From Nitrospirota bacterium (GTDB lineage Bacteria; Nitrospirota; Thermodesulfovibrionia; Thermodesulfovibrionales; UBA1546): DNA of 60,652 nt. A program made the position numbers and the translations under genes. The notes under the pieces are model-generated. The model was not told the DNA's origin. It worked only from the letters and a program-made list of their open reading frames with translations, and ran no database searches. Location: the NCBI GenBank assembly GCA_026387575.1, contig JAPLLK010000092.1, positions 1 to 60,652 of the forward strand, given 5' to 3'. The first letter of the stretch is position 1; the number at the start of each line of letters is the position of its first letter. Positions 41,742 to 56,191 of the stretch are shown one piece after another.

Positions 41742-41828
41742 GCCGGAGTGGCGGAATTGGTAGACGCAAGGGACTTAAAATCCCTCGTCGGCAACGGCGT
41801 GCCGGTTCAAATCCGGCCTCCGGCACCA
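41742..41828 (+). tRNA. tRNA-Leu (anticodon UAA), CCA encoded
   Basis: Cloverleaf read by eye: acceptor GCCGGAG/CTCCGGC, anticodon stem AGGGA/TCCCT with loop CTTAAAA, a long variable arm, and T-arm GCCGG-TTCAAAT-CCGGC. Confidence 0.9.
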
Positions 41829-41834
41829 TATAAA

Positions 41835-42863: not shown

Positions 42864-43937
42864 TTATGCGGTAGGCTCCCAAATATATTTACCGGTCTTA
42901 TCAATATACCCCATATAAGCAATCTCTGCTATGTCATCTGAACGTCGTTTATTTCTCTGATATTGATTTTCGAAGCCAACCCATGCCAATCCATTCTCAA
43001 AGCTCCATGCTGTATCATACTTTGGTTCAATAACTATTTTACCTTGCCGGTTAATAAATCCGTCTTTGCGGTCAATTTTAACAGAAGCCATACCGTGAGA
43101 AAAGCCAAAAGCATTTTCATATTTCGGCTCTATTACTATTTCTCCGGTTTTATTAATAAACCCCCACTTGCCCTCAAGCTTTACTGCTGCCAAGCCATCA
43201 TTGAATGCTTTAACTTCCTGAAACCGCTTGTTACCGATAATTATCCTGCCTGTTCTGTCAATATACGTATCAGGATACCATCGTTTACCTACACGTGCTA
43301 ACCCTTCGTTAAAATTGAAGGCTGATTTATATTGCGGCTTGATAACAAACTTGCCACCCTTGACTATGTAGCCCCATTTTTTGCCTAATAACACCTCAGC
43401 TAATCCCTCTGAAAAAACAACAGGCATGCGACTCTGCGGTTTAATGACAATTCTACCCTCTTTGTCTACACACCCCCATTTCTTATTAACCATCACAGAG
43501 ACTAAACCCTCAGAAAAATAGTATGCCTCTTCAAATTGAGGCTCTATAACCATTGCGCCTGTTTTATTGATAAAGCCCCATTTCCCATTTGGCCCTTTCA
43601 CTGGCGCAAGACCTTCAGAAAAAATGGTGAACGATTCAAACTGCGGCTTTAATACCATTCTGCCGGTCTTATCAATAAATCCGTATTTGTTTTTTACTTT
43701 GACGGTTGCCAACCCATCGGAAAAATTACATGCTGAGTCAAACTGCGGATTTATGACAACAGTGCCTTTTGAATTAATATACCCTCTTTTGCCATCAACA
43801 GTGACGGGGAATAACGGGGCTTCTATTGAATCTTTCTTAATTGCGGCTAAAGCAAAATCGCTATAGGTTAAAGCAACTCCTGTTATAGCCAACCCTCTTA
43901 AAAAATCTCTTCTGCTAAGCATAATTCCTCCTTGCAA
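42864..43937 (-). CDS. WG-repeat (KWG-type) protein with twin-arginine signal peptide
   Basis: 357 aa with the SRRDFLRGLAITG Tat motif, followed by about 9 repeats of the pattern GxINxxGxxVIxPQFxxAxxFSEGLAxV...KWGF. Confidence 0.8.
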   Translation of the reverse strand: MQGGIMLSRRDFLRGLAITGVALTYSDFALAAIKKDSIEAPLFPVTVDGKRGYINSKGTVVINPQFDSACNFSDGLATVKVKNKYGFIDKTGRMVLKPQFESFTIFSEGLAPVKGPNGKWGFINKTGAMVIEPQFEEAYYFSEGLVSVMVNKKWGCVDKEGRIVIKPQSRMPVVFSEGLAEVLLGKKWGYIVKGGKFVIKPQYKSAFNFNEGLARVGKRWYPDTYIDRTGRIIIGNKRFQEVKAFNDGLAAVKLEGKWGFINKTGEIVIEPKYENAFGFSHGMASVKIDRKDGFINRQGKIVIEPKYDTAWSFENGLAWVGFENQYQRNKRRSDDIAEIAYMGYIDKTGKYIWEPTA

Positions 43938-43977
43938 TTGTCCGATTTAAAATTTAATTAGCCTTATTCTAATATTG

Positions 43978-44004
43978 CACCTCCCCCATGGAGTGTCCGG
44001 GGTT
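43978..44004 (-). promoter_or_regulatory. island motif copy a (CACCTCCCCCATGGAGTGTCCGGGGTT, plus-strand reading)
   Basis: One of four copies of a 27-bp motif, 40 nt upstream of the WG-repeat gene start. Confidence 0.6.
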
Positions 44005-44035
44005 TTCCTATAGCCTGATACACTTAACCCTCTCC

Positions 44036-44611
44036 TCAGCCTTTCCCTAAAGCAGACCTGTCCGCTGCTGTTAATGCCTTTTCTGCCCTAACCTCAAAAA
44101 CAACCGGCTTTACCGCAACCCTGTTCTCTGCCTTCCATCCCGGGCGTAAGACCTCTATCTCAAAGCCTTCTATAGTTTCATCCCCGAGGGATTCAGGATA
44201 GTCCTCGAACTCATAGTCTTTTGCGGAATCCCTGCTTACTCTTAATCTCTCCCCTTTGGCCTTAAAAGGCTCTATCCCGAGTGTATTTGAAAGGGTGTCA
44301 TATACTCCGAGCAGGACAGCGTTCTGCTCTATATTTCCGTCATCTTTCCCTGATTCGACCCTGTTTTTATGCTCAATAAGGGCATGGAGGATGTCTCCGT
44401 TAACAGAGCGGCACAATCTGTTTATGATCTCCTTTTTTACCTCGAAAGAGGTCATCTCCCTCAGGTCGCGCAGTGACGCCATGAATCCATTTGCCTGTAT
44501 GTCAGCCTTTCTAATGTACCCTTCGAGTTTTCTCAGGGTATTCCATACGTCCTTCGGCCTCTTCCTGATTGTTGTCGAGCGAGATTTTTTCTTTGTCTTA
44601 TTCTTTTTCAC
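44036..44611 (-). CDS. hypothetical protein, possibly a GrpE-like nucleotide-exchange factor
   Basis: 191 aa from GTG 44611, preceded by GGGAGGAGGAG. It has a basic/helical N-terminus and a C-terminus ...LGIEPFKAKGERL...IEVLRPGWKAENRVAVKPVVFEV that resembles the GrpE pattern G.e.i...G..f....h.A...v..GY....r..r.A.V.V. This is a by-eye match only. Confidence 0.5.
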   Translation of the reverse strand: MKKNKTKKKSRSTTIRKRPKDVWNTLRKLEGYIRKADIQANGFMASLRDLREMTSFEVKKEIINRLCRSVNGDILHALIEHKNRVESGKDDGNIEQNAVLLGVYDTLSNTLGIEPFKAKGERLRVSRDSAKDYEFEDYPESLGDETIEGFEIEVLRPGWKAENRVAVKPVVFEVRAEKALTAADRSALGKG

Positions 44612-46979
44612 GCAGACTCTCCTCCTCCCATATCCCTGATTCAGGCCCGGCAATGAGCCTATCAGGGCTTACGTTAAGTACCTTGGAGTTTTTTAAATCC
44701 CTGAGCTTTTTACCTGCTATCTGAGCATCTTCATAATCACCGAGCGCCCTGTTTGCGCCTTCAAGGAAATCAAGATACCTCTCAGTCTGTGGATACTGGG
44801 AGCACAGCCTCCTTAATATCTGCCTCGCCATCTTGTATTCCTTAATAGCCTGCGCCTCATTTCCTGATTTCCTGTAAGCTTGGCCGAGCCAATAATAGGC
44901 GGCATAGTGCTCTGAATCAATATCAAGTGCCTGCCTTAATCTTGAAATGCCCTCATCAATCTTTCCGCAGTCAGCAAGCTGGCAGCCATAATTTGTTGCA
45001 TATATGACATTGTCTGGTGCCATCTCAAAAGCCTTCCTGAAATATTCGAGGGCCTTTTCTTCTTCCCCCCTATCTTCATAGCAGAGCGCAACAATATTAT
45101 TAAGGCCTGCTGTATTTATGCCCTTATCCTGAAGCCTCTCGATTATCTCCACGGCTGCGCCTGTATTTCCTCTGAGCCTTTCCCTGTTTGAAAGCTCTAT
45201 CATCAACTCAGGGTCAGCCTTCTGACGCCCTTTCTTCATTTCAGCCGCCTTCTTCCATAACTCGCCTGCGGCGATGTCCTCAGGGGTATTAATGTTATGA
45301 GTCCACGGATGGCTTAGCTCAGCATCTATCTTTATATCAGGCTTATACACAAGGCCTGCGGTAAACTTCATAACCTTGTTCCTGTCTATATGCAGTCCTA
45401 TGCTCACAGGCTCACCCTTTTTAATGCCTTCAGGCAGCGAAAGCTTCAGGTTGCTTATCACCTTTCCGTTTCCCGAGTATATGGATATCCCGACGCTTTC
45501 AAGATTGTCCTTTGGGATGCAGAAATTATCGTTAACAGAAAAGTCTCCGTTGCCGGGAAAGGGAAGCTCAGTCCCAGCAGCCAGAAGTTTCTCCCTTTTC
45601 AGTCCCAGGGTGAAGATTCCTATCTCGTCATTTACTATGGGGATGACAACAGGCCTTTCATTTTTATGCAGATAGTAGCACTGAATTGCAGCACCCTTTG
45701 AAACAGAAAGGTCAAGGTCAGGCGCATCAAAGAACCTCGCATTCCTGAAGCTATCGAATGTCTCAAAGGCCCTTCTTATGATTGGGTTATGGCAGCTCCC
45801 TCCGTTAAAGATAAACGCGTCAATAGCTTCCGGCGATAGGTTCGCCTTATCAAGTGCATTAAATACAGGGCCGAAGAATGAGTATATGAAATAATCATCA
45901 GCAATCCTGCAGGAACCATCAAAATTATACGAGACAAACGGCTTCATAAGTTCCAGAAACCTCTCTGCGCTTGTAGTGCCGGATATCTTCCTGGTCTTTA
46001 TATCAAGGGCTGAGATATGAAAAGCATCGACTGACCATTGCTGCTTGCAGGTCCTGCCCCTGCCTCCTGAAATCATCATGCATATGCTTTCCTTAAGACT
46101 TTTTGCCGTAATTTTAAGCCTGAACCTGAGCTCCCTTTTAACTTTTTCTGGGAGGGAACCGAAATCAATGGAATTTTTTTCGCAGTATAAAGGAAGAATC
46201 TCCGCTTCAACGATATGAAGATCTATGTTATCCCCGCCAAGCTTCTCGTAATTGCTTATCGACCTGTTTTTGATGTTAAGGCCTATGCCGTTACTGACCG
46301 CATCTGCATCATATGATGCTTCAAAAACAGAGATATCGCATGTGCCTGCCCCAAGGTCGAACATAACGGTCTTTCTTGGTCTCTTCATATCAAGATTCGA
46401 GTCGAGCTTTTGGTGGCAGGCAGTATGTATGAATGCTGCAACAGGCTCATCAAGGAGGCCACCGTCATCAAGCGTCAGGCCTGCCAGCCTTGCAGCCTTT
46501 ATTGTGTCCTCGCGCTGGTTGTGGGCAAAGGAGGCGGGCACTGTTATCACAACATGGGATTTCTTTGGAGATATGCCTGTCTCTTTTTCTGCTACCCTTA
46601 TAAGCTTTTTTATTATCTCTGCGGAAACCTCAACAGGAGAGATTATCTCAGGATGGACTGAATCCTCGTATATCTTCAGAGTTCCCATGTCAGACTTGAC
46701 AGACACAAACAGGTTTTCGAAAGGTTTAGCCCTTTTGCCAGCGGCTTCCTCCAATGCCTCAAACCCTGTTATGACCTTCTTAGAGTTCTGCCTATGCTCT
46801 ATGTAGACAACAGAAGGCAGCCTCTGCCAGTTATGAAAGAGTGTTGCTCCTGCATGCGGATTGAACTTTATCGTTACCGGCTCTATATAAGTGCGATGAC
46901 TGCTGTTCCTGCCTTCAACAAGGTAACTTATGGATGAACTGCTTGTTCCAAGATCAATTCCGAAATAGACCTTGCTCAT
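44598..46979 (-). CDS. Hsp70-family ATPase (NBD + SBD-beta-like) fused to C-terminal TPR repeats
   Basis: 793 aa from ATG 46979 (RBS AAGGAGG). Hsp70 motifs are GIDLGTSSS, VVITVPASFAHNQREDTIKAARLAGL, LLDEPVAAF, VMFDLGAGTCDISVFE, GGDNID and FNGGSCHNPIIRRAFE. An SBD-beta-like stretch and about 5 TPR units (...ALEYFRKAFEMAPDN..., ...YYWLGQAYRKSGNEAQAIKEY...) follow. Confidence 0.85.
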   Translation of the reverse strand: MSKVYFGIDLGTSSSSISYLVEGRNSSHRTYIEPVTIKFNPHAGATLFHNWQRLPSVVYIEHRQNSKKVITGFEALEEAAGKRAKPFENLFVSVKSDMGTLKIYEDSVHPEIISPVEVSAEIIKKLIRVAEKETGISPKKSHVVITVPASFAHNQREDTIKAARLAGLTLDDGGLLDEPVAAFIHTACHQKLDSNLDMKRPRKTVMFDLGAGTCDISVFEASYDADAVSNGIGLNIKNRSISNYEKLGGDNIDLHIVEAEILPLYCEKNSIDFGSLPEKVKRELRFRLKITAKSLKESICMMISGGRGRTCKQQWSVDAFHISALDIKTRKISGTTSAERFLELMKPFVSYNFDGSCRIADDYFIYSFFGPVFNALDKANLSPEAIDAFIFNGGSCHNPIIRRAFETFDSFRNARFFDAPDLDLSVSKGAAIQCYYLHKNERPVVIPIVNDEIGIFTLGLKREKLLAAGTELPFPGNGDFSVNDNFCIPKDNLESVGISIYSGNGKVISNLKLSLPEGIKKGEPVSIGLHIDRNKVMKFTAGLVYKPDIKIDAELSHPWTHNINTPEDIAAGELWKKAAEMKKGRQKADPELMIELSNRERLRGNTGAAVEIIERLQDKGINTAGLNNIVALCYEDRGEEEKALEYFRKAFEMAPDNVIYATNYGCQLADCGKIDEGISRLRQALDIDSEHYAAYYWLGQAYRKSGNEAQAIKEYKMARQILRRLCSQYPQTERYLDFLEGANRALGDYEDAQIAGKKLRDLKNSKVLNVSPDRLIAGPESGIWEEESLREKE

Positions 46980-46998
46980 ATTGCCTCCTTTGTTGCAA

Positions 46999-47349
46999 TC
47001 ACCATGCCGCGATTGCTGGATTTTCAAACGGAGCTGCCATGAAATTCCTGCGCGGCATGTATCTTTTGAGTTTCTTTTTTATCTGCCTGAGCCCTTTTTT
47101 ATTCCTGTAGGCTGTGATCAGGCATTTCCCGTCATTAGAGACAACAAGGGTTGTGCCCTCAAGTTTTGCGTACCTGTCATCCCTGAGATACCCTGATGGG
47201 ATGTCGTGCCTTCCTAGAAACACAAAAAGAGCGCCTGCCCTGTGTATCTTCTGCCCGAATCTAAGCAAGAATTCTATGTTCTCTCCTCTGATGTTACGCT
47301 GTGAGGCCCTCTCGAAAGCATGTTTGCTGAATCTTTCGAACATCTCCAT
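46999..47349 (-). CDS. DUF4258-like (BECR-fold RNase toxin-type) domain protein
   Basis: 116 aa. FSKHAFERASQRNIRGENIEFLL...GTTLVVSNDGKCLITAYRNK matches my recollection of the DUF4258 pattern (S.HA.eR...R.I......ViTvYr). The RBS is AAGGAGGG. Confidence 0.55.
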   Translation of the reverse strand: MEMFERFSKHAFERASQRNIRGENIEFLLRFGQKIHRAGALFVFLGRHDIPSGYLRDDRYAKLEGTTLVVSNDGKCLITAYRNKKGLRQIKKKLKRYMPRRNFMAAPFENPAIAAW

Positions 47350-47358
47350 GCCCTCCTT

Positions 47359-47520
47359 TTAAACTTTTCTTTTTTCGATTATCTTCCTGAGTTCATTAGC
47401 AGTTACATGAGCTTTAATCTCATAAAAGCGTACGGTTCTGTGCCACCTTACAACGCTGACAAACATGAAGACGCTGGATATAACAAATAGAATCACTATG
47501 ATGCTTAGAATTGCTGTCAT
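47359..47520 (-). CDS. small single-pass membrane protein (53 aa), first gene of the Hsp70-TPR operon
   Basis: Below the ORF-track cutoff. My translation is MTAILSIIVILFVISSVFMFVSVVRWHRTVRFYEIKAHVTANELRKIIEKRKV. A strong RBS AAGGAGGA precedes it, and it ends 9 nt before the next start. Confidence 0.45.
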   Translation of the reverse strand: MTAILSIIVILFVISSVFMFVSVVRWHRTVRFYEIKAHVTANELRKIIEKRKV

Positions 47521-47573
47521 TTTGTCCTCCTTTTTTGGTTAAAAATTAATTTCATGTTTTAAGTATAAAGGGG

Positions 47574-47600
47574 CACCTCCCCCAAGGGATGTCTGAGGTT
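47574..47600 (-). promoter_or_regulatory. island motif copy b (CACCTCCCCCAAGGGATGTCTGAGGTT)
   Basis: 53 nt upstream of the small-TM gene start. It lies within a 45-nt stretch identical to copy d. Confidence 0.6.
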
Positions 47601-47723
47601 AAAAAAAATATTTTGCTGTTAATGCAAGCTGCAGTATTGAGGTCTTTTAAGGACACTAGATGTGGGGATTAGAATTTTTGCTGCCTTCGGGATACAGATG
47701 CCAGTGAACAGATGATTCAAAAC

Positions 47724-48797
47724 TCAGTGTTTTTCTGCCATTCTCTGTTTTACCGCTTGCTGCAACTCTTTCAATGGCTCATTTTCGGGCTCCAAAGCAA
47801 GCCCTTTTTTGATAACTTCATCTGCTTCATCAAGTCTCCCTAAATCTATTGCTGTTTCCGCAAGATTTTCATACAGCCCAACAACGTCAGGAATCTTTTC
47901 AACTCCTTCTTTGGCTATCATATACGCCTCATGGCGCAAATCGGCATCCATATATGAACAGCAGAGGCCTCCGTAAACGTTGTCTGATTCAAGTCCCATT
48001 TCTTTTGCTGTCCTGTAATAGCAAATCGCTGCCCACGGTTCTTTCCTCTCCAGATTGCAATATCCCATTTCAATAAGATACCGAGGGTCATCAGGGACTA
48101 TTTCAAGCAGTTCTGTCAGCACTTTGAATGCCTCTTCATGGTATCCAAGAAGATTAAGAGATAGCGCCTTGTTATACAACAAAGGCGTAATATCATTTAC
48201 ATCGCTTGCAAGTGCTTGGTCAAAGTATCTCAATGCCTCATACAGATCATCCATCCTGTAAAACAATAAACCCATTAAATTGAGCAATGCTGAAGATTCA
48301 GGATATTTTTCAAGGGCCTCCTCAAGTAGTTCACTTGCCTTTTTATACTCTTCTCTCTCGATAAGCTCTCTCGTGATTCCATAATAGCGTTGCTCGCCAT
48401 GAGATTTCCATGGAAGCGAATTATATATGCTCATTGCCTTTTCATATTCCTCTTGGTCGAGATGCAATTCTCCGATTTGGATTAAAAGATCGTTAAGTTT
48501 GCTCTTGAGTGTTTTCTTTTTTTTGGGCTCAGTTGTTTCTTCCAGTTTTTCCCTGAGCTTCTCAACCCTTGCGTTCAACTTTCTGACTTCCCTCTCTGCC
48601 TTTGCCGTATTCTTGTCCATTATCAATCCTCCTTTATTTCTCATTTTACTTTCTAAATATTTTTGACGTGCTTGCCTAACAGCTTCTTTTGATACTGGCT
48701 CGTCTCCACCAAGAGACTCTATATAAGAGTCCAATGCCTCACCATACTGTTCGTCTGTTAAATGTCTAACTGGCGGGTGTTTTCTGTTGGTTATCAT
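47724..48797 (-). CDS. coiled-coil + TPR repeat protein (paralog 1)
   Basis: 357 aa with a charged helical N-terminus followed by TPR units. It is clearly paralogous to 52844-53839 (for example LLYNKALSLNLLGYHEEA vs ALYNKALSLNNLGYYEDA, and PDDPRYLIEMGY vs PDDPEYLVEMGY). Confidence 0.8.
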   Translation of the reverse strand: MITNRKHPPVRHLTDEQYGEALDSYIESLGGDEPVSKEAVRQARQKYLESKMRNKGGLIMDKNTAKAEREVRKLNARVEKLREKLEETTEPKKKKTLKSKLNDLLIQIGELHLDQEEYEKAMSIYNSLPWKSHGEQRYYGITRELIEREEYKKASELLEEALEKYPESSALLNLMGLLFYRMDDLYEALRYFDQALASDVNDITPLLYNKALSLNLLGYHEEAFKVLTELLEIVPDDPRYLIEMGYCNLERKEPWAAICYYRTAKEMGLESDNVYGGLCCSYMDADLRHEAYMIAKEGVEKIPDVVGLYENLAETAIDLGRLDEADEVIKKGLALEPENEPLKELQQAVKQRMAEKH

Positions 48798-48842
48798 AAT
48801 TACCCCCTGAAATAAAATGATTATATTTTTATTGTAACGTCA

Positions 48843-48869
48843 GACATCCCCCATAGAGTGTCCGAGGTT
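48843..48869 (-). promoter_or_regulatory. island motif copy c (GACATCCCCCATAGAGTGTCCGAGGTT)
   Basis: 45 nt upstream of the TPR paralog 1 start. Confidence 0.6.
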
Positions 48870-49116
48870 TTAAAAAAGGGGATTTAAGCAGATTTTAGGA
48901 GGCGATGATACTTAAGCACTATTTCGGGGCGGATGGGAAAGGTGAGAGAATTTAGCGGGAAATTCAGAAAGCGCCCCTCTCGGCATCACTACTTACCTAG
49001 AGCAATCTGATTCGCCATATACCGCTCCAATCCTCATCTGCTTCAAACCAGTACCCCTCAAGAATTTTGCTTTTTTCAAACATATGCAATGCGGCTTTAC
49101 CGTTCACACTCGGTGC

Positions 49117-49362
49117 TCAAAGCTCATAGTGACCTTTTCCTTTTTCAGTCCCCTGATATACAACATAGCCACCATCTTCTAAAGGATACGATACAACGAT
49201 TCGAGAATCATCAAATTTTATTTCACCCTCAATTTTCACCTCAGCACCTTCGTCAAAATAGGAAAAATCAATTGAATATTTATTGACGATTGGGAGATGC
49301 TCCTTGCTGGGAATAGAGCATTTTCTCTTTAAGGTTGTTTTTAAATTTGATCTTTTTGCCAT
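49117..49362 (-). CDS. hypothetical protein (possibly truncated by an in-frame TGA)
   Basis: 81 aa. The same frame stays open for 39 more codons after the TGA (to 48997). Confidence 0.4.
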   Translation of the reverse strand: MAKRSNLKTTLKRKCSIPSKEHLPIVNKYSIDFSYFDEGAEVKIEGEIKFDDSRIVVSYPLEDGGYVVYQGTEKGKGHYEL

Positions 49363-49466
49363 CTAAATCCTCCTCGTGAACTCACTTATGGCTTAAATAA
49401 AAGCCCTGCTACTGCTACCTAATGCAGCTATTGCCTTTCAGCTATTCTGTAGTTTCTTGAGTCAAT

Positions 49467-51146
49467 TTACTGTTTCTTTGACAAAGGAGGACCTGGCCAA
49501 ATCTTCATGGCTACTCTAAGAAGCCTTTCCCCTCTCTTTTCGATTTCTGTCTTTGTCCATGTATCGTATTTCGCAATAATCTTTGTCAGCCAGTAAGGAC
49601 TTTTTTTGTAGCCTTTCTTTTTTTCTTTAAAACCGTGATTCCCCAATGTGGGATTATATGCGGTGAGACTTAGGTTTCCCATAACATGCAGGCTCTTCTT
49701 CAAATCAGATAAGGAGTTAGAATCCCAATCGTTCATTTTTGCCTGCTGTGGAAACACGTGCTCAATCTGGATAGATTTGCCCAACTGCAATTCTTTATCA
49801 GCAGACTTGTAACGTTCTATACTTTCTAAAGCAAATCTGGCAGTTGCAGGTGCGGTTGTATAAATAGAGGATGAGACAAAGCATGTTCTGAACTGATCAT
49901 CATCTGGCCACTTTTCATCTTTCAGGATTTTAGATAGGTTCTTACCCTTCTTATCAATTAGTTTCTTGGCAATTCGAGCAAAGACTTGGTTTAGATCACG
50001 TGACACTTTGCTATTAAACGCTCGCCGAACAACGAACGACTCAATGTATTGCAAAGCCCGTTCTAAATCCTTGATAGTTATTTCTTCATTTGCCAGAGAA
50101 CGATATAACACCAGCAAAACGGGATAGTAAGTTGTCATCTTTAAGTCTACAAGTCTTTGCAGTTGCGAACGCAGCTTTTTTCTTTGCTCAAGTTCAGGAT
50201 TGAGAAATTTGCAATATTGCCCGGCTTCATTGAGAAGCATTTTTAATTTATCCTCAACGTGACCATCATGGAAAAAAGACCGTAACTCCCTGAATAAATC
50301 AGTTGTGCTGATATATTTTTCTTTTTGAACGACTAGAACAGCCCGAAGAAAGTCTCTCAATATTTTTTGGAATTCAGCTTTTTTAGCCTTCCCATTACCG
50401 TCAGATATACTTTCCTCTATCTTATCCTCTATCCCTCGCCAGTAAGTATTATTTAGCCTTTCTTGTTCCTTCCCATTTCTTACAAGGCTTAAAATAAAAT
50501 TACGGGCAAGATCAGACTGGGTCAACGGAACGCCAGCATAGTTAATTGATTCAAATATGGCGTGAGCATCATCATTATCAGTCAGAACAATTTCCACAAA
50601 TACCATGCCCGACAATACGGTTTTCAGAAAGTTGTTGAAGTGGCTCGGTTTTTTCCCTTTTGTATTCTCAATATGGTTCTGAATTCCTTCATGGAAAAAA
50701 TCATAACCTGCTCTGACTTGTTTATGCCGAACTTTCTGAAGTCCGTCTGGATTACCTAAAAGACGATTAAATGCATCCTGATCATGGAGCGATGGTTTAA
50801 ATCTTGGATTTCCTTTTATTGTAAGATGTCTTTCTATTTCTCTTGTTTTAGCAGTGGCATATTTATGGGACAACGACCTCAACACTGTCAAAATAATTGT
50901 GAATGTTGCCAAACGTTGCTGGCCGTCAATTATTATAAAATGACGGTTTCTGGAATCGGGTTTAAAAACCAATGTACCCATAAAATGCCGTTTGCCGGTT
51001 CCATCCATAATCTTCGTAATGTCATCCAGCAACTGTACGAAATTCTTTTGCTTCCACGCATACCGTCTTTGAAATGGTGGAACGATAAATACATTCTTAT
51101 TCTTATGGCCTATCAGCTTTTCTATAGTGCGCTCTTCAACCTTCAT
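49467..51146 (-). CDS. DUF262/DUF1524 protein (GmrSD-type, putative modification-dependent Type IV restriction nuclease)
   Basis: 559 aa. N-terminal DUF262 motifs are FIVPPFQRRYAWKQKNFVQLLDDI and IIIDGQQRL. The C-terminal His-Me/HNH-like DUF1524 motifs are IEHVFPQ...GNLSLTAYNPTLGNHGF. Confidence 0.85.
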   Translation of the reverse strand: MKVEERTIEKLIGHKNKNVFIVPPFQRRYAWKQKNFVQLLDDITKIMDGTGKRHFMGTLVFKPDSRNRHFIIIDGQQRLATFTIILTVLRSLSHKYATAKTREIERHLTIKGNPRFKPSLHDQDAFNRLLGNPDGLQKVRHKQVRAGYDFFHEGIQNHIENTKGKKPSHFNNFLKTVLSGMVFVEIVLTDNDDAHAIFESINYAGVPLTQSDLARNFILSLVRNGKEQERLNNTYWRGIEDKIEESISDGNGKAKKAEFQKILRDFLRAVLVVQKEKYISTTDLFRELRSFFHDGHVEDKLKMLLNEAGQYCKFLNPELEQRKKLRSQLQRLVDLKMTTYYPVLLVLYRSLANEEITIKDLERALQYIESFVVRRAFNSKVSRDLNQVFARIAKKLIDKKGKNLSKILKDEKWPDDDQFRTCFVSSSIYTTAPATARFALESIERYKSADKELQLGKSIQIEHVFPQQAKMNDWDSNSLSDLKKSLHVMGNLSLTAYNPTLGNHGFKEKKKGYKKSPYWLTKIIAKYDTWTKTEIEKRGERLLRVAMKIWPGPPLSKKQ

Positions 51147-51261
51147 TGTTTATCACCCACAAAATATACTATCCGCATCACCAAAAATCTTCATTATGGT
51201 CTTAGCTCCAGGGTTAAGAATACCAGTTAAATCTTCAGGCATAAAATGCTCCTTCTTTCAA

Positions 51262-51486
51262 CTATCTTTTTTCAACTCGTGGCGCCTTGTCTTCCATCAA
51301 CTTACCAAACTTATCCCAACCCATCTTGTACCCATAAGAAGTCTTCTTTGGAAACCAGACAAGAGAGCCGTTTGATACAGCAAGGGTACCCAACAAGACT
51401 ACACCATTGCGTTTTATAAGAAATTCTACATCTGCTTTGCCCAAAGAACGCTGAGGAATGTTGAATAAGACATCATGTTTTGCCAT
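51262..51486 (-). CDS. hypothetical small protein
   Basis: 74-aa ORF between the HD and GmrSD genes on the same strand. I recognise no motif. Confidence 0.4.
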   Translation of the reverse strand: MAKHDVLFNIPQRSLGKADVEFLIKRNGVVLLGTLAVSNGSLVWFPKKTSYGYKMGWDKFGKLMEDKAPRVEKR

Positions 51487-51542
51487 TATAACCCTCCTTC
51501 ATTTTTAATGATTCAACGTATATCATACCGCGACTTTCAGTT

Positions 51543-52730
51543 TCACTCAAAATCTGCGTAGATCTCGCCAAAATTTATCCCTGCGATATTGGCCCTGCCG
51601 TAGCTGTTCCTGAATGACAGTTTTGCCTCCTGAAACTCCTGATTCGGGCTTCCGTTTCTTATTGCAGCAGAGGCCTCAATGAAAGCTGAAAGGCTGTCGG
51701 CAGCCTTGACAATATCTCCATCTCTTGGATTGAATTTGCTTTCGTTATATTTATCACTTATTCCCCTGCTTTTCATCTTCTCAGTTTTATTATCTATCGT
51801 TATAATGTTGTCGAATTCATTCTCCGTGAACATTCTTATCTCAGGATGCCAGTCTTCCGGAATAAGGCCGTAAACCTCTTTTTCCATCTGTTCTTTTTCA
51901 TATTGCTTTATCAGCTCGCTCAAGCCGTCAATAGACCTTTTGACAGGGGAGATTATGTCCCTTGTGAGCACCTCCGGAAGGTCATGGAATAAGCCTGTGA
52001 AATAGTTATTTGCGCATCTTCTCTCGCAGGCATTTATCTCAAGCGAAAACAAATAAGATAAGATGGCAACATAAAGCGAATGACCTATTACGGAAGTCTT
52101 TGGAATCCTGTGGAGTTTTGCCCATCGTGCCTGAAATCTTAGCTGACCGCACAGGTTAATGAAGTTCCTGTACCTGACATGCTCTTTTAATTGAGCCATG
52201 CCCTTCAGGTCTGAGTATTTCTTCTGCGCTTCTGCCAATGACTGTTTAATTGCCGCTATCTCATATCCTTCAGGATTTGTACGCTCTATGATGTTAAATT
52301 CCCATTTGGTTGCATACAAATGCGCTGCGCTCAGAATTCTTTTATTTAATGTATCCTCTGTATTCAGGAAATAATCCTGAAATCTTTTGCAGAAGCCTTC
52401 TCCCAGCGGAGAGATTAATGGTTTTATTTCATTGTACGCCCATTCGTTCAACTGTCTGTATTTATCAGTATCCTGCTTTATCTTATAAAATATCGGGGGC
52501 TTCAAATCTGTAATGACAAGCCTCTGTAGAAGCTCAAAGATTCCACCTTCAATAATCTCTATCCAGTTGAAACCTTTTGTGTTTTCCTCGAACTTGCCAA
52601 GGAAATATGCAATTATCATTTTATGAGCCTGCTTGTCGAGTTCAATCATCTCCACAGGCCGGACTTTATCGTTCCACCTCTGCATATAGGCAGCGTCAAA
52701 GATTTTGAGAAGCAGTGCCTTTCGTATCAT
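51543..52730 (-). CDS. HD-domain phosphohydrolase
   Basis: 395 aa with ...VIGHSLYVAILSYLF... and ...GLFHDLPEVLTRDI..., the H...HD metal-binding signature. Confidence 0.8.
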   Translation of the reverse strand: MIRKALLLKIFDAAYMQRWNDKVRPVEMIELDKQAHKMIIAYFLGKFEENTKGFNWIEIIEGGIFELLQRLVITDLKPPIFYKIKQDTDKYRQLNEWAYNEIKPLISPLGEGFCKRFQDYFLNTEDTLNKRILSAAHLYATKWEFNIIERTNPEGYEIAAIKQSLAEAQKKYSDLKGMAQLKEHVRYRNFINLCGQLRFQARWAKLHRIPKTSVIGHSLYVAILSYLFSLEINACERRCANNYFTGLFHDLPEVLTRDIISPVKRSIDGLSELIKQYEKEQMEKEVYGLIPEDWHPEIRMFTENEFDNIITIDNKTEKMKSRGISDKYNESKFNPRDGDIVKAADSLSAFIEASAAIRNGSPNQEFQEAKLSFRNSYGRANIAGINFGEIYADFE

Positions 52731-52767
52731 GCGAATATCTTCATCCCTTCCGGCAAATTATGCTGCT

Positions 52768-52796
52768 ATTATACTTCCACAGCATCATAAAAACAA
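52768..52796 (-). promoter_or_regulatory. candidate internal promoter for the HD gene
   Basis: Read on the minus strand: TTGTTT, 17-nt spacer, perfect TATAAT, about 38 nt upstream of ATG 52730. A 6-bp inverted repeat ATGCTG/CAGCAT flanks it. Confidence 0.35.
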
Positions 52797-52843
52797 TTGT
52801 ACTTTTTTTAACGCATCTCAATGTTATAAAACACTTCACATGC

Positions 52844-53839
52844 TCATTTTTTAGGTCTAAATATCCTCATATTGCGTAACTTTTTAATTAGAGCGGCTAC
52901 GATTAAAATCTCTTTAATCGGTGGTTTTTTGCCATTATCAGGATTATTCTCTTCATCCTCAATTTCCTTGAGCAATTCCATCAAGTCATTGTCCTCGGGA
53001 AATACTTCAAGTCCTTTTTTAAGGATATCTTTTGCTTCATCAATCCAGCCCATTTCCTTATAAATGCTGCTAAGGTCTCCATACAAACGGGAATGGCTGT
53101 CAGGCAATTCTTTGATTCCTTCAATTGCTATTTCTAAGGCATCATTTTTTAAACCCATATTATAATATGACCAGAAGAGCCCATCATAAACTGACCAGTT
53201 CAAGTATCCGGCGTCCTTTGCTTTTTTATAAAAAGGTATCGCTTCTTCAGGATATCCTCTGCAAATATCGATATATCCCATTTCAACAAGATATTCCGGG
53301 TCATCAGGATATTTTTCAATAAGGTCTTTAATGATAGGTTCCGCATCTTCATAGTAGCCGAGGTTGTTCAAACTCAGTGCCTTGTTATAAAGCGCATTCC
53401 TGCCATCCGGCGTAAATTTTACGGCTTGCTCGAAATATTTTAATGCCTCAAAATCATTATCCAGCCGCTGGTGCAGACATCCCATTGCAATAAGAAGCGG
53501 GACTGATTCAGGAAAACGACTCAATCCCTTTCCCAGCAATTTTCTGGCTTCATTATAATATTCCATTTCTATAAGTGCCCTTGCCATTCCGGTAAACTTC
53601 ATTTCTGCGTGAGTTCTCCATGAGAGCGTCTGATACATTGCAAGCCCATTTTCATTTTCTCCTGCATCAAGAAGCGCCCATGCAAGCTGATTCTTTAGTT
53701 CGGCAATACAATTCTTATATTCTCTGCCGGCACAATTGCCGGTATTCTCGCCTAAGCCCTTTTGCGCGCGGGAAAGCCTTCTTTTTAGTTTTTTTATTTC
53801 TTGATAAATGACTTTCAGTCTCGGGTCTTTTTTGTTCAT
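52844..53839 (-). CDS. coiled-coil + TPR repeat protein (paralog 2)
   Basis: 331 aa, paralogous to 47724-48797 over most of its length. Confidence 0.8.
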   Translation of the reverse strand: MNKKDPRLKVIYQEIKKLKRRLSRAQKGLGENTGNCAGREYKNCIAELKNQLAWALLDAGENENGLAMYQTLSWRTHAEMKFTGMARALIEMEYYNEARKLLGKGLSRFPESVPLLIAMGCLHQRLDNDFEALKYFEQAVKFTPDGRNALYNKALSLNNLGYYEDAEPIIKDLIEKYPDDPEYLVEMGYIDICRGYPEEAIPFYKKAKDAGYLNWSVYDGLFWSYYNMGLKNDALEIAIEGIKELPDSHSRLYGDLSSIYKEMGWIDEAKDILKKGLEVFPEDNDLMELLKEIEDEENNPDNGKKPPIKEILIVAALIKKLRNMRIFRPKK

Positions 53840-53857
53840 GCTTATATTTTAAAGACA

Positions 53858-53884
53858 GACCTCCCCCAAGGGATGTCTGAGGTT
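53858..53884 (-). promoter_or_regulatory. island motif copy d (GACCTCCCCCAAGGGATGTCTGAGGTT)
   Basis: 18 nt upstream of the TPR paralog 2 start, between the WYL gene stop and TPR2. Confidence 0.6.
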
Positions 53885-53985: not shown

Positions 53986-54996
53986 TCAGTAAATTTTTGC
54001 TATCTTTTCAGCCTCTGTCTTAATCAATTCCCTCAGTGCCTCCGGCTTCACAACCTCCACCCCTGCGCCGTGCTTAAGTATCTCCCTTTCAATCTCTGTA
54101 AAATCAGAAACAGGGAAGCTGAGTTCAAGGGAGCCGTCATCGAGAATTTTCGTTTTCTGGTCTTTGTGCCATATCTGGTCATATATCCATTTTGCCTTCT
54201 CCGGCGTAAATCTCAGAATAACCTGTTTAGCAGATCCACCTTTATAAAGCCCAAATGAGGACTGGAAGTAGTCTTTGAAGTTAAAGTTATTTTTTATTGC
54301 AAAATATCTGTCAGCTATCTTTATTTCAGAAATCCTGTTAAGTCTGAAATCCCGTATCTCGCTCCTCATATAGCAGTACCCGATTAGATGCCATGTGCCC
54401 ATATAATTAAAAAGATGATACGGATCAACTGTCCTCTCTGTCTTATCTTTCCTCGCGGGAGAGCTGTACTTGAATGTCAGCGACATTTTTTTCATGCATG
54501 CCTCAAGCACAGTCTTGAATGTATCTTCAGGAGCAGGTGTGTACTCTATAAGGTGGAACGATAGGCATTCATCCATCTTATCAGGGCCTGAGGTATGTTT
54601 TTTAATAAAAGACGTTATCTTGTCAACTGCTGATGTAATCTCTTTTTCGATTCCGCTTCCGCTCATGTCCTGAAGTAGCCGCCTTGCAACAAGCAGAGAT
54701 GTGAGCTCGGATGAAGACAGGTATGTTGAAGGAATGGAGAATGTGTCATTCTCGTAATAATATCCTTTTTTAGACTGGTCATAAAGAAGTGGGGCCTTGA
54801 GTCTCTCCCTCATGAACTCGGTGGTGCGCTGGGCTGTCTTTACTGATATCTCAAACTTTCTGGCAAGGCTTGTGGTGTTGGGAAATTTCTTCCCCTTGAC
54901 CTGACGGTCGAACCATAAAAAACGCTCATATGAGAGTATATCGCCCATATCATGCTCGGACAAAGACATTTTAAGGAATTTACTATAATCTTTCAA
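53986..54996 (-). CDS. HTH-WYL-WCX transcriptional regulator (BrxR/CapW/PafBC-like)
   Basis: The N-terminal HTH is FPNTTSLARKFEISVKTAQRTTEFM. The WYL domain is ERTVDPYHLFNYMGTWHLIGYCYMRSEIRDFRLNRI. The C-terminus is GAGVEVVKPEALRELI. The start is TTG 54996 or ATG 54969. Confidence 0.85.
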   Translation of the reverse strand: MKDYSKFLKMSLSEHDMGDILSYERFLWFDRQVKGKKFPNTTSLARKFEISVKTAQRTTEFMRERLKAPLLYDQSKKGYYYENDTFSIPSTYLSSSELTSLLVARRLLQDMSGSGIEKEITSAVDKITSFIKKHTSGPDKMDECLSFHLIEYTPAPEDTFKTVLEACMKKMSLTFKYSSPARKDKTERTVDPYHLFNYMGTWHLIGYCYMRSEIRDFRLNRISEIKIADRYFAIKNNFNFKDYFQSSFGLYKGGSAKQVILRFTPEKAKWIYDQIWHKDQKTKILDDGSLELSFPVSDFTEIEREILKHGAGVEVVKPEALRELIKTEAEKIAKIY

Positions 54997-55148
54997 TCAA
55001 AATCTGCGTAGGTCTCGCCGAAATTTATCCCTGCGATATTTGCCCTGCCGTAGCTGTTCCTGAATGAGAGCTTTGTGTCATGGAATTCCTGGTTAGGGCT
55101 TCCGTTCCTTATTGCTTCAGAGGCTTCAATGAAAGCGGCAAGACAGGC
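54997..55148 (-). pseudogene. 3'-terminal remnant of a second HD-domain gene
   Basis: About 150 nt roughly 85% identical by eye to the 3' end of the HD gene (51543-51695). It encodes ...FIEASEAIRNGSPNQEFHDTKLSFRNSYGRANIAGINFGETYADFD* versus ...FIEASAAIRNGSPNQEFQEAKLSFRNSYGRANIAGINFGEIYADFE*. Similarity ends abruptly near 55148. Confidence 0.75.
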
Positions 55149-55538
55149 GTTTATTTCGATATGTACTCAGCAAGTTTTACGTAACACGAGATATGTTGGT
55201 AGGTGTGAGAAACATATATTCCTCAAAGTGTCAGCTTCACCCCACAAAACGTGAATTTGAACTGCCCATTAAATTTCCCTATGGCAGACTAACTTAACTC
55301 AGTGTCCGTTAAATCGGGGGAAAATCACTGATATTAAACAATCCAATGCTTTATGGAAAAACTATTGGGATACTATAGACCCATCAGTTAAGGCAGCCGC
55401 TTCTTCTGCGGTTAAGGGCTTGGAATCTGATATAACTCCGACTTTAACTTTTCCACCATCAACCCAAACTCCATCTTTGAAAAGCAAGGGAACCTTGCCC
55501 GAATCCAGTGGTCTTAAATCTATTACTGAACCCTTAAA

Positions 55539-55563
55539 CGTTCTCCGCATGTGCGGGGAACAT
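55539..55563 (-). repeat. degenerate type I-E-like CRISPR repeat copy
   Basis: The minus strand reads ATGTTCCCCGCACATGCGGAGAACG. It shares the palindromic core with the copy at 55938-55966 but has a degenerate 3' handle. Confidence 0.45.
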
Positions 55564-55937: not shown

Positions 55938-55966
55938 CGGTTCATCCCCGCATGTGCGAGGAACAT
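55938..55966 (-). repeat. type I-E-like CRISPR repeat copy (29 nt)
   Basis: The minus strand reads ATGTTCCTCGCACATGCGGGGATGAACCG. It has the same architecture as canonical I-E repeats (GTTCCCCGC-loop-GCGGGGAT-AACCG). Confidence 0.5.
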
Positions 55967-56084
55967 AAGCTGCCAATTTAATCCAACTCCTTCCAACAAT
56001 GAAGAAAAAGAAAAGCCTTTGAAGTCAAAGAATAAATCTCTGAAATCAAAGGCTTTCTGAAATTTTATGAAAGGTTATTTTTCG

Positions 56085-56141
56085 GACTGTAAATCCCTCG
56101 TCCCCAAAGGGCGTGCCGGTTCAAATCCAGCCTCCGGCACA
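56085..56141 (+). repeat. partial tRNA-Leu copy (anticodon arm to acceptor 3' strand): att-type direct repeat marking the distal island end
   Basis: GGACTGTAAATCCCTCGTCCCCAAAGGGCGTGCCGGTTCAAATCCAGCCTCCGGCAC aligns to 41774-41826 of the intact tRNA. There is no 5' half, a T-stem mismatch, and no CCA. Confidence 0.8.
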
Positions 56142-56191
56142 ATATCCGCTCTATACTCTCTACGAGTCGTAGGCTAAGGGTCGCAGACGAG

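Follow-up and report, generated by a model that had tools for sequence, protein, structure and literature searches.

A conserved 27-bp element in promoter register and its candidate WYL-family reader in a Nitrospirota genomic island

Four copies of a 27-bp motif stand upstream of gene units in a defence-type island of a Nitrospirota bacterium (Thermodesulfovibrionales, UBA1546; assembly GCA_026387575.1, contig JAPLLK010000092.1), here analysed over positions 1 to 60,652 of the forward strand (60,652 nucleotides, hereafter the window), and the question raised by this locus is what the motif does and which protein reads it. An initial annotation had proposed a dyad operator bound by the WYL regulator encoded in the island, naming a dedicated promoter or a 5′-untranslated RNA element as alternatives. 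The reading favoured here, with confidence that is fair but well short of firm, is a WYL-dependent, activator-type hybrid promoter composed of the element, 6 nt and a −10 hexamer, without a −35 box.

The repeated element and its promoter register

All four copies lie on the minus strand and were recovered by invariant-base search and with a position weight matrix (PWM): copy 1 (AACCCCGGACACTCCATGGGGGAGGTG, 43978–44004; 46.6 bits, at approximately −45 to −19 of the promoter of a WG-repeat gene), copy 2 (AACCTCAGACATCCCTTGGGGGAGGTG, 47574–47600), copy 3 (AACCTCGGACACTCTATGGGGGATGTC, 48843–48869) and copy 4 (AACCTCAGACATCCCTTGGGGGAGGTC, 53858–53884, beginning 102 nt past the stop codon of the WYL gene). 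Sequence and position of the plus-strand 27-mers agree exactly with the initial annotation, as do the count of 19 invariant positions out of 27 (checked by hand) and the common orientation, each copy lying 5′ of a minus-strand gene. A search of the 60 kb with the 19 invariant bases, allowing three mismatches, returned these four on one strand and no further copy, again as annotated; the expectation by chance is 0.00 copies (same search, 100 dinucleotide shuffles), and in a PWM scan of the window the four score 41–47 bits against 9.3 bits for the runner-up site. The annotated distance to the start codon, 18–53 nt, stands for copy 2 (53 nt to the ATG of a small transmembrane gene at 47520), copy 3 (45 nt to the TPR1 ATG at 48797) and copy 4 (18 nt to the TPR2 ATG at 53839), and falls for copy 1 owing to the choice of start codon, the gap being 55 nt to the WG-repeat ATG at 43922 and 40 nt to an alternative TTG at 43937. 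A further ~100 nt of upstream sequence, with one indel, is common to copies 2 and 4, which are therefore duplicated promoter cassettes.

On the coding (minus) strand the motif reads AACCYCRGACAYYCYWTGGGGGAKGTS, and each window copy is followed, after exactly 6 nt, by a −10-like hexamer that the initial annotation did not mention: TAGAAT past copy 1 (43966–43971), TATACT past copy 2 (47562–47567), TACAAT past copy 3 (48831–48836) and TAAAAT past copy 4 (53846–53851), all on the minus strand. The same 6-nt spacer was found at 76 of the 76 sites analysed. If the hexamers are −10 boxes, the motif would occupy approximately −45 to −19 of a 39-bp promoter. The 'dedicated promoter' alternative is the better description, the motif being the upstream part of a promoter with a −10 in fixed register. 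The block GGGGGAGGT is invariant at −28 to −20 and places GGA at −25 to −23. At the −35 position the window copies have ACTCCA or ATCCCT, unlike TTGACA, and a sigma-70 scan that needs a −35 calls none of the four promoters; across all 73 unique sites no −35 match of 4/6 or better is present, the best reaching at most 3/6, and an extended −10 TG occurs in only 14 of the 73.

Other promoter and leader types were considered and set aside. A sigma-54 promoter is ruled out by the lack of GG-N10-GC, and a MerR-type reading by the 22-bp spacer that GGACA as a −35 would require. Extracytoplasmic function (ECF) sigma promoters carry a short −35 (AAC), a CGT-like −10 and 16–17 bp spacing; this type is ruled out by the TATAAT-like −10 and a conserved block of 27 bp. 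Nor is GGGGGAGGT a Shine-Dalgarno sequence, its distance to the start codon varying from 18 to >55 nt, and the 5′-untranslated RNA alternative is unlikely given a motif that lies upstream of the −10.

The register extends in some cases to the start codon: an ATG stands exactly 6 nt past the −10 in 11 of 74 sites, against one to three at other offsets, and five of these 11 ATGs open reading frames of 252–346 aa, TPR2 among them. This peak points to leaderless mRNAs beginning 7 nt past the hexamer, and the TPR2 mRNA, whose ATG (53839) starts 7 nt past TAAAAT, is probably leaderless. ATGs at the 6-nt offset are seen at window position 53839 and in loci L020, L058, L066 and L071, mostly before TPR-family targets.

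Relatives of the element and the adjacent WYL gene

GTDB representative genomes, scanned for exact matches to the 19 window-invariant bases, yielded none; the left arm of the window consensus (ACCYC) is a minority variant. Viral contigs scanned with the same consensus also gave none, which argues that the motif is not a phage element. Three metagenome contigs of low GC do carry the window consensus, with N6-TATAAT behind it in every case: L001, L002, where it comes immediately after the C-terminus of a WYL homologue, and L003, where it lies between McrBC and a 331-aa TPR gene. Three further metagenome matches (L004–L006) look like chance occurrences in sequence of 55–67% GC with no −10 after the match.

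Six loci were then fetched via WYL homologues of 63–90% identity (P0001, P0005, P0009, P0078, P0008 and P0116), and in all six a motif copy follows the WYL stop codon on the same strand, at 12–745 bp; the distance is 12–42 bp in five, and in L082 two inserted small genes bring it to 745 bp. A second copy is found in L007–L010, 76 bp upstream of the WYL gene, divergent and facing an SprT-like gene, and in L016, ahead of an Hsp70-TPR gene. Since these loci were not selected by the motif, its linkage to the WYL gene is real.

The protein-anchored sites yielded a second pattern, ACNNNRGACAYNNNNTGGGGGAGGTNNNNNNNTANNNT, in which only T, A and T of the hexamer are specified, and a GTDB scan with it found 64 strict sites in 60 loci of 38 metagenome-assembled genomes (MAGs), where approximately one to two would be expected by chance (our arithmetic: 4^19 × 2^2 = 1.1e12 against 1.2e12 positions). 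These assemblies are mostly Nitrospirota and Desulfobacterota (Syntrophaceae, Syntrophorhabdus, Geobacterales), joined by one contig labelled Chloroflexota and one labelled Bathyarchaeia. The sites give a family consensus of rACATAGGACAC-N4-TGGGGGAGGTC-N6-TAtAAT; positions that the pattern left unspecified are also conserved, with A/T/A at −42/−41/−40 and C at −19, and the free hexamer positions are t/A/A in 37, 47 and 50 of 62 sites. A relaxed PWM search across all loci added only seven variants, with single substitutions in GGACA or GGGGGAGG, and a family-core search of the window with three mismatches found nothing beyond the four copies. The dyads noted in the initial annotation (ACCTC...GAGGT, GACA...TGTC) are confined to the window variant: the family sequence, ACATAGGACAC-N4-TGGGGGAGGTC, is asymmetric, which rules out a dyad operator as a family feature, and keeps only GAC and GTC triplets 17 bp apart, not the palindrome CGAC-N7-GTCG of the DriD type.

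These two short contigs, assigned to an archaeal bin (Bathyarchaeia, L076) and to a Chloroflexota MAG (L067), have promoter copies of bacterial type with Desulfobacterota-like leaders and ORF6N or TPR genes, and are probably mis-binned or recent transfers. In the Desulfobacterota loci L029, L039, L045, L063, L076 and L077, the predicted transcripts open with three to five tandem GGA(A/U)U units in the first ~30 nt past the −10, as in gtGGAatgtGGAttgcGGAatgcGGAat, and several of them precede AddB/AddA-like genes; the units might form a platform for a CsrA-like or other RNA-binding protein. Rfam returned no RNA family for the motif, the leaders or the GGA-rich leaders, matching only tRNA-Leu in the window and a tRNA in L011.

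From the G-run of the motif onward, into the TPR gene, L001 (3501, minus strand) and L003 (7170) are identical; their upstream sequences are unrelated (DUF262-HNH and McrBC, respectively) and the variable motif core differs at four of five bases, so that promoter copies may act as recombination joints shuffling cassettes between defence islands. Such joints, together with the duplicated cassettes around copies 2 and 4, suggest that motif copies may be recombination substrates, and transcription of the WYL gene probably continues through the copy beginning 12–42 nt past the stop codon, all of which could speak for a non-regulatory repeat: an element like a repetitive extragenic palindrome (REP) or a miniature inverted-repeat transposable element (MITE), a recombination site, or a transcribed RNA leader. 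That explanation is nevertheless very improbable. Strict sites number at most six per genome, intergenic positions account for at least 68 of 76 sites, and every site faces the next gene with its −10 in register, so the REP-like abundance that would have undone the initial annotation is not seen; moreover, the element has no Rfam match, lies upstream of the inferred transcription start site (TSS), lacks terminal inverted repeats and target duplications, and is absent from the viral contigs.

Among the 64 pattern-found sites, 19 have a WYL homologue within 1.3 kb upstream, with identity down to 38% (in a Geobacterales MAG); in 12 of these 19 the gene shares the strand of the motif and is no more than 320 bp away, and in three it is divergent at 75–79 bp. 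A divergent arrangement occurs in L007, L048 and L054. The duplicated WYL sequence of L002 is a separate observation: within positions 1–1900 the WYL C-terminus appears twice (6–245 and just before 1899), flanking an AAA-ATPase (DUF4143-like) gene on the opposite strand, with a degenerate motif copy lacking a −10 at 259–285, an arrangement that looks like an insertion with duplication.

Adjacency at six of six anchored loci and 19 of 64 pattern sites makes the WYL regulator, already proposed as binder in the initial annotation, by far the best candidate on comparative evidence. A different reader, whether an alternative sigma factor or another DNA-binding protein, with the WYL gene a mere neighbour or regulon member, could draw on the ~70% of pattern-found sites that have no WYL gene within the 8-kb stretch, on a long asymmetric element unlike the known sites of homodimeric WYL proteins, and on TPR and Hsp70-TPR genes that are equally frequent neighbours. 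It is nonetheless improbable: the −10 is of the housekeeping TATAAT type rather than ECF-type, the ~20 conserved positions far exceed what sigma region 4 contacts, no sigma-factor gene was seen in the island, and WYL is the sole DNA-binding protein that recurs beside the motif, where chance adjacency of a single-copy gene in a ~3-Mb genome is estimated by us at below 0.1% per site.

The WYL protein and its possible mode of action

The candidate reader is a WYL-WCX transcription factor with the class-A layout (winged helix-turn-helix, WYL, WCX), encoded on the minus strand at 53986–54948, with 320 aa counted from ATG 54948; the mechanical open reading frame (ORF) starts at TTG 54996, and homologues, also of 320 aa, place the true start at the ATG. 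An exact-protein look-up of the ORF from the TTG start returned nothing, the window's own protein being absent from the collection. A sigma-70-like match, TTGAAA-17-TAAAAT (54968–54996, minus strand; a consensus match only), lies 5′ of the gene, and the PWM scan found no motif copy upstream of the WYL gene in the window. Pfam identifies the WYL domain (PF13280, 5.8e-21) and, after it, the WCX dimerisation domain (PF25583, 1.6e-16), and more than 460 homologues were found, mostly at 61–73% identity among the matches listed (three at 85–90%, one at 52%), the few that are named being from Nitrospirae or Thermodesulfovibrionales MAGs. An AlphaFold2 (AF2) model, which at a predicted local distance difference test (pLDDT) score of 68.6 and a predicted template modelling (pTM) score of 0.39 is reliable for domain order only and not for DNA contacts, places a winged helix-turn-helix (wHTH) of three helices and a β-hairpin at residues 6–65 (pLDDT 72–89), three helices at 79–128, the WYL domain at 141–232 and WCX at 241–319. 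Conservation across 22 homologues is highest in the wHTH, which includes the putative recognition helix KTAQR, and this parallels the near-invariance of the DNA element.

Full-length Foldseek comparison ranks DriD (2e-16) above PafBC, CapW and BrxR, in that order, and phmmer against the PDB gives PafBC 8e-19, DriD ~6e-10, BrxR 1e-5 and CapW 2e-3, so that PafBC and DriD appear to be modestly closer relatives of the protein than BrxR and CapW are; homologues also show a faint Pfam match to WHD_BrxR (PF26109). A single WYL gene is present in the island and in every related locus, and not the pair that a PafB/PafC heterodimer calls for.

DriD, PafBC, SiwR and DdaA provide the analogy for the mechanism favoured here, in which the WYL domain would probably sense damage or phage attack through single-stranded DNA (ssDNA) or some other nucleic acid, a ligand of this kind being suggested by the wider WYL family (PMC9186387, PMC11804915). 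The regulator would most likely bind the 27-bp element and, once bound, recruit or adapt the housekeeping RNA polymerase at TAnAAT promoters, which would jointly switch on the WG-repeat gene, the operon of small transmembrane, DUF4258 and Hsp70-TPR genes, TPR1, and TPR2 with the HD and GmrSD genes. An activator fits the pattern because the −35 is missing, the 6-nt register is invariant, GGA stands at −25 to −23 and the motif lies downstream of the regulator gene. The analogy with BrxR and CapW drawn in the initial annotation suits the locus less well, given the absent −35, the rigid register, the motif downstream of WYL and the affinity of the protein to PafBC and DriD.

Several points weigh against WYL-dependent activation. 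Homodimeric WYL factors (DriD, DdaA, SiwR, BrxR, CapW) bind palindromes, and it is the PafBC heterodimer that reads an asymmetric site; here the product of a single WYL gene would have to read both GGACAC and TGGGGGAGGTC. The preference of the protein for DriD and PafBC over CapW and BrxR is slight and the model mediocre, most scan sites have no nearby WYL gene, as is however expected for a regulon, and all relatives of the element are from MAGs. The 14 promoters with an extended −10 could fire without a −35, a site at −45 to −19 is also where a repressor would sit, and the WYL factors of defence islands have so far been repressors (PMC13622015).

These last points converge on a competing explanation, unlikely though by no means negligible, in which the element is an operator for a WYL repressor that, in the manner of BrxR and CapW, blocks RNA polymerase and comes off the DNA in response to ssDNA or a different signal. 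The site overlaps the polymerase footprint, the extended −10 of those 14 promoters could offset the missing −35, the homologues carry the faint WHD_BrxR match, the island is defence-type, with GmrSD and an HD protein, and WYL repressors embedded in BREX (bacteriophage exclusion) and CBASS (cyclic oligonucleotide-based antiphage signalling) loci bind to repeats in promoter regions, from which ssDNA releases them (PMC13622015). Against it, not one of the 73 promoters has a −35 match above 3/6 and could be called self-competent on that score; the spacing is invariant over two phyla, where a steric operator needs no fixed distance; the family consensus is not an inverted repeat; with the motif downstream of the WYL gene and none upstream in the window, there is no autoregulatory operator; and the protein itself resembles BrxR and CapW less than it does PafBC and DriD.

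Within the activator reading, a bolder and quite tentative proposal is that a WYL protein from a single gene reads the asymmetric element by combining a DriD-like position, over the −35, with a PafBC/SiwR-like −26 block, and so runs a cross-phylum damage or infection regulon. If true, this would be a mode of promoter recognition so far undescribed for WYL proteins presumed to be homodimers; in anaerobes of the Nitrospirota and Desulfobacterota, type I-C CRISPR-Cas would be induced together with AddAB-like nucleases, restriction enzymes (GmrSD, methylases) and a conserved, uncharacterised module of TPR protein, Hsp70-TPR and small peptide; and this core module could be a new defence or signalling system.

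Downstream genes, island borders and comparison with known WYL systems

The downstream ORFs of 76 sites were clustered and then checked against Pfam. Type I-C cas operons (Cas3, Cas5d, Csd1/Cas8c and probable Cas7), often behind two tandem copies, follow 12 sites; a ~330-aa TPR family that includes TPR1 and TPR2 follows 11, Hsp70-TPR six (homologues stand after the motif in L016, L032 and L059), AddB/AddA-like helicase-nucleases six and ORF6N five, with Bro-N, a DnaQ-like exonuclease, DNA methylases, ARPP-1, DUF4258 and SprT-like genes also present. Judged by predicted function, the regulon is a mixture of immunity and DNA repair, and its conserved core consists of WYL, the promoter, then a small peptide, TPR or Hsp70-TPR gene. 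A common cis element, backed by the comparative evidence, likewise argues that the four window units form one regulon, as the initial annotation had proposed.

Pfam bears out the identities first assigned to the window genes (WG_beta_rep; HSP70 plus TPR; TPR; TPR; WYL plus WCX), all on the minus strand. Copy 1 precedes the gene for a WG-repeat protein (42864–43922; 352 aa from ATG 43922; PF14903, 3e-89) with a TAT-like signal, secreted, and copy 2 an operon (44036–47520) encoding a small transmembrane peptide (47359–47520), DUF4258 (46999–47349), an 809-aa Hsp70-TPR fusion (44598–47027) and a 205-aa ORF (44036–44653), its proteins checked against Pfam. Copy 3 precedes TPR1 (47724–48797; 357 aa), placed by Pfam and clustering in the ~330-aa TPR family (cluster C0). 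TPR2 (52844–53839), an HD/YfbR-like gene (51543–52730), orf74 (51262–51486), GmrSD (49467–51146) and orf81 (49117–49362) probably form one operon from copy 4 (49117–53839), an extent that follows from co-directional genes with no intervening motif or convincing terminator.

The island is bounded on one side by tRNA-Leu(taa) (41742–41828, plus strand; the only Rfam match in the window) and on the other by a partial direct repeat of its 3′ half (56084–56145, plus strand), 81–92% identical to 41771–41831; the 14.3 kb so delimited hold the WYL/TPR/Hsp70/GmrSD set. The repeats flank the island in the manner of attL and attR of an integrated element, and no integrase gene was seen within the 14.3 kb. 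Immediately upstream of the WYL gene, a 159-nt duplicate (54991–55149, minus strand), 86% identical to the 3′ end of the HD/YfbR-like gene (51541–51699), is a pseudogene remnant, since its translation runs into a stop (...RNSYGRANIAGINFGETYADFD*); that translation matches the C-terminus of the HD protein in L003. A conserved ORF of ~75 aa (MAKHDV.FNIPQRSLGKADVEF...) lies beside GmrSD/DUF262-type nucleases both in the window (51262–51486) and in L001 (3197–3424), and may encode a nuclease partner that is as yet uncharacterised. The gene-poor stretch separating the WYL gene from the island border holds two copies of a 22-nt direct repeat with a palindrome (TCTCCGCATGTGCGGGGAACAT) at 55542–55563 and 55945–55966, 403 nt apart.

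No description of the motif or regulon in these phyla was found in the literature. Data on transcriptional regulation are not known for uncultured Thermodesulfovibrionia-like Nitrospirota or for syntrophic Desulfobacterota, and the motif supplies a sequence-defined regulon for both. It predicts the co-induction of type I-C CRISPR-Cas, AddAB-like nucleases, GmrSD, methylases and TPR/Hsp70-TPR genes, and the 39-bp promoter is usable as a search key for new response genes such as the ~330-aa TPR family; the asymmetric 27-bp site with its rigid 6-nt register also offers a test case for WYL activators that replace the −35 contact.

The closest structural relative is DriD of Caulobacter crescentus, a WYL activator of the SOS-independent damage response and the best Foldseek match, with the same order of wHTH, helical bundle, WYL and WCX. 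The centre of the DriD site coincides with a very poor −35, its distance to the −10 does not vary, and one target promoter is divergent from driD itself (PMC12340889); here, too, the candidate site lies over a weak −35 at fixed distance from the −10, one target promoter stands beside the regulator gene or diverges from it (L007, L048, L054), and the regulon includes DNA-repair genes. The DriD site is, however, a 21-bp palindrome, ATACGAC-N7-GTCGTAT (PMC10853764), whereas the present element is 27 bp long and asymmetric, with a G-rich block (TGGGGGAGGTC) reaching −19; sequence identity is ~17–18%, and the targets are mostly defence genes (type I-C cas, GmrSD, methylases) together with TPR and Hsp70-TPR genes.

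The promoter architecture recalls the actinobacterial PafBC and SiwR systems. PafBC promoters lack a −35 and pair a −26 element with a canonical −10, termed 'sigma adaptation' (PMC8635444), and SiwR requires GGA at −26 (PMC10693628); the same type of hybrid promoter is present here, with a canonical −10 (TAtAAT), no −35, a factor element directly upstream and around −26, and GGA at nearly the SiwR position. Sigma adaptation of the PafBC type places the factor between sigma region 4 and the DNA. PafBC is also the best sequence match in the PDB. It differs in being a PafB-PafC heterodimer or fusion, where a single 320-aa gene is found here, and its consensus tGTCgg-N10-TAnnnT is not matched by an element that reaches −45.

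DdaA of Moraxellaceae activates damage-response and CRISPR or restriction-modification promoters (PMC12392091), and as a single WYL activator with a similar mixture of repair and defence genes it offers a further parallel, although it recognises a palindrome, CGWCA-N5-TGWCG, ~50 bp upstream of the TSS, so that phylum, motif and position all differ. BrxR and CapW of BREX and CBASS are likewise WYL-WCX regulators inside defence islands with ssDNA as the likely signal; their repression acts through inverted repeats located in promoters of the defence operons to which they belong (PMC13622015), either 5′ of the regulator gene or divergent from it, whereas the present element is asymmetric, downstream of the regulator and in register with a −10 that has no −35, and sequence similarity to these proteins is weaker. 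In gene content, the predicted downstream set resembles the DdaA and PafBC regulons. The motif regulon probably belongs to the known class of WYL-controlled damage and defence regulons, and would extend the WYL coupling of damage or infection sensing to immunity, as represented by DdaA, BrxR and CapW, to two more phyla.

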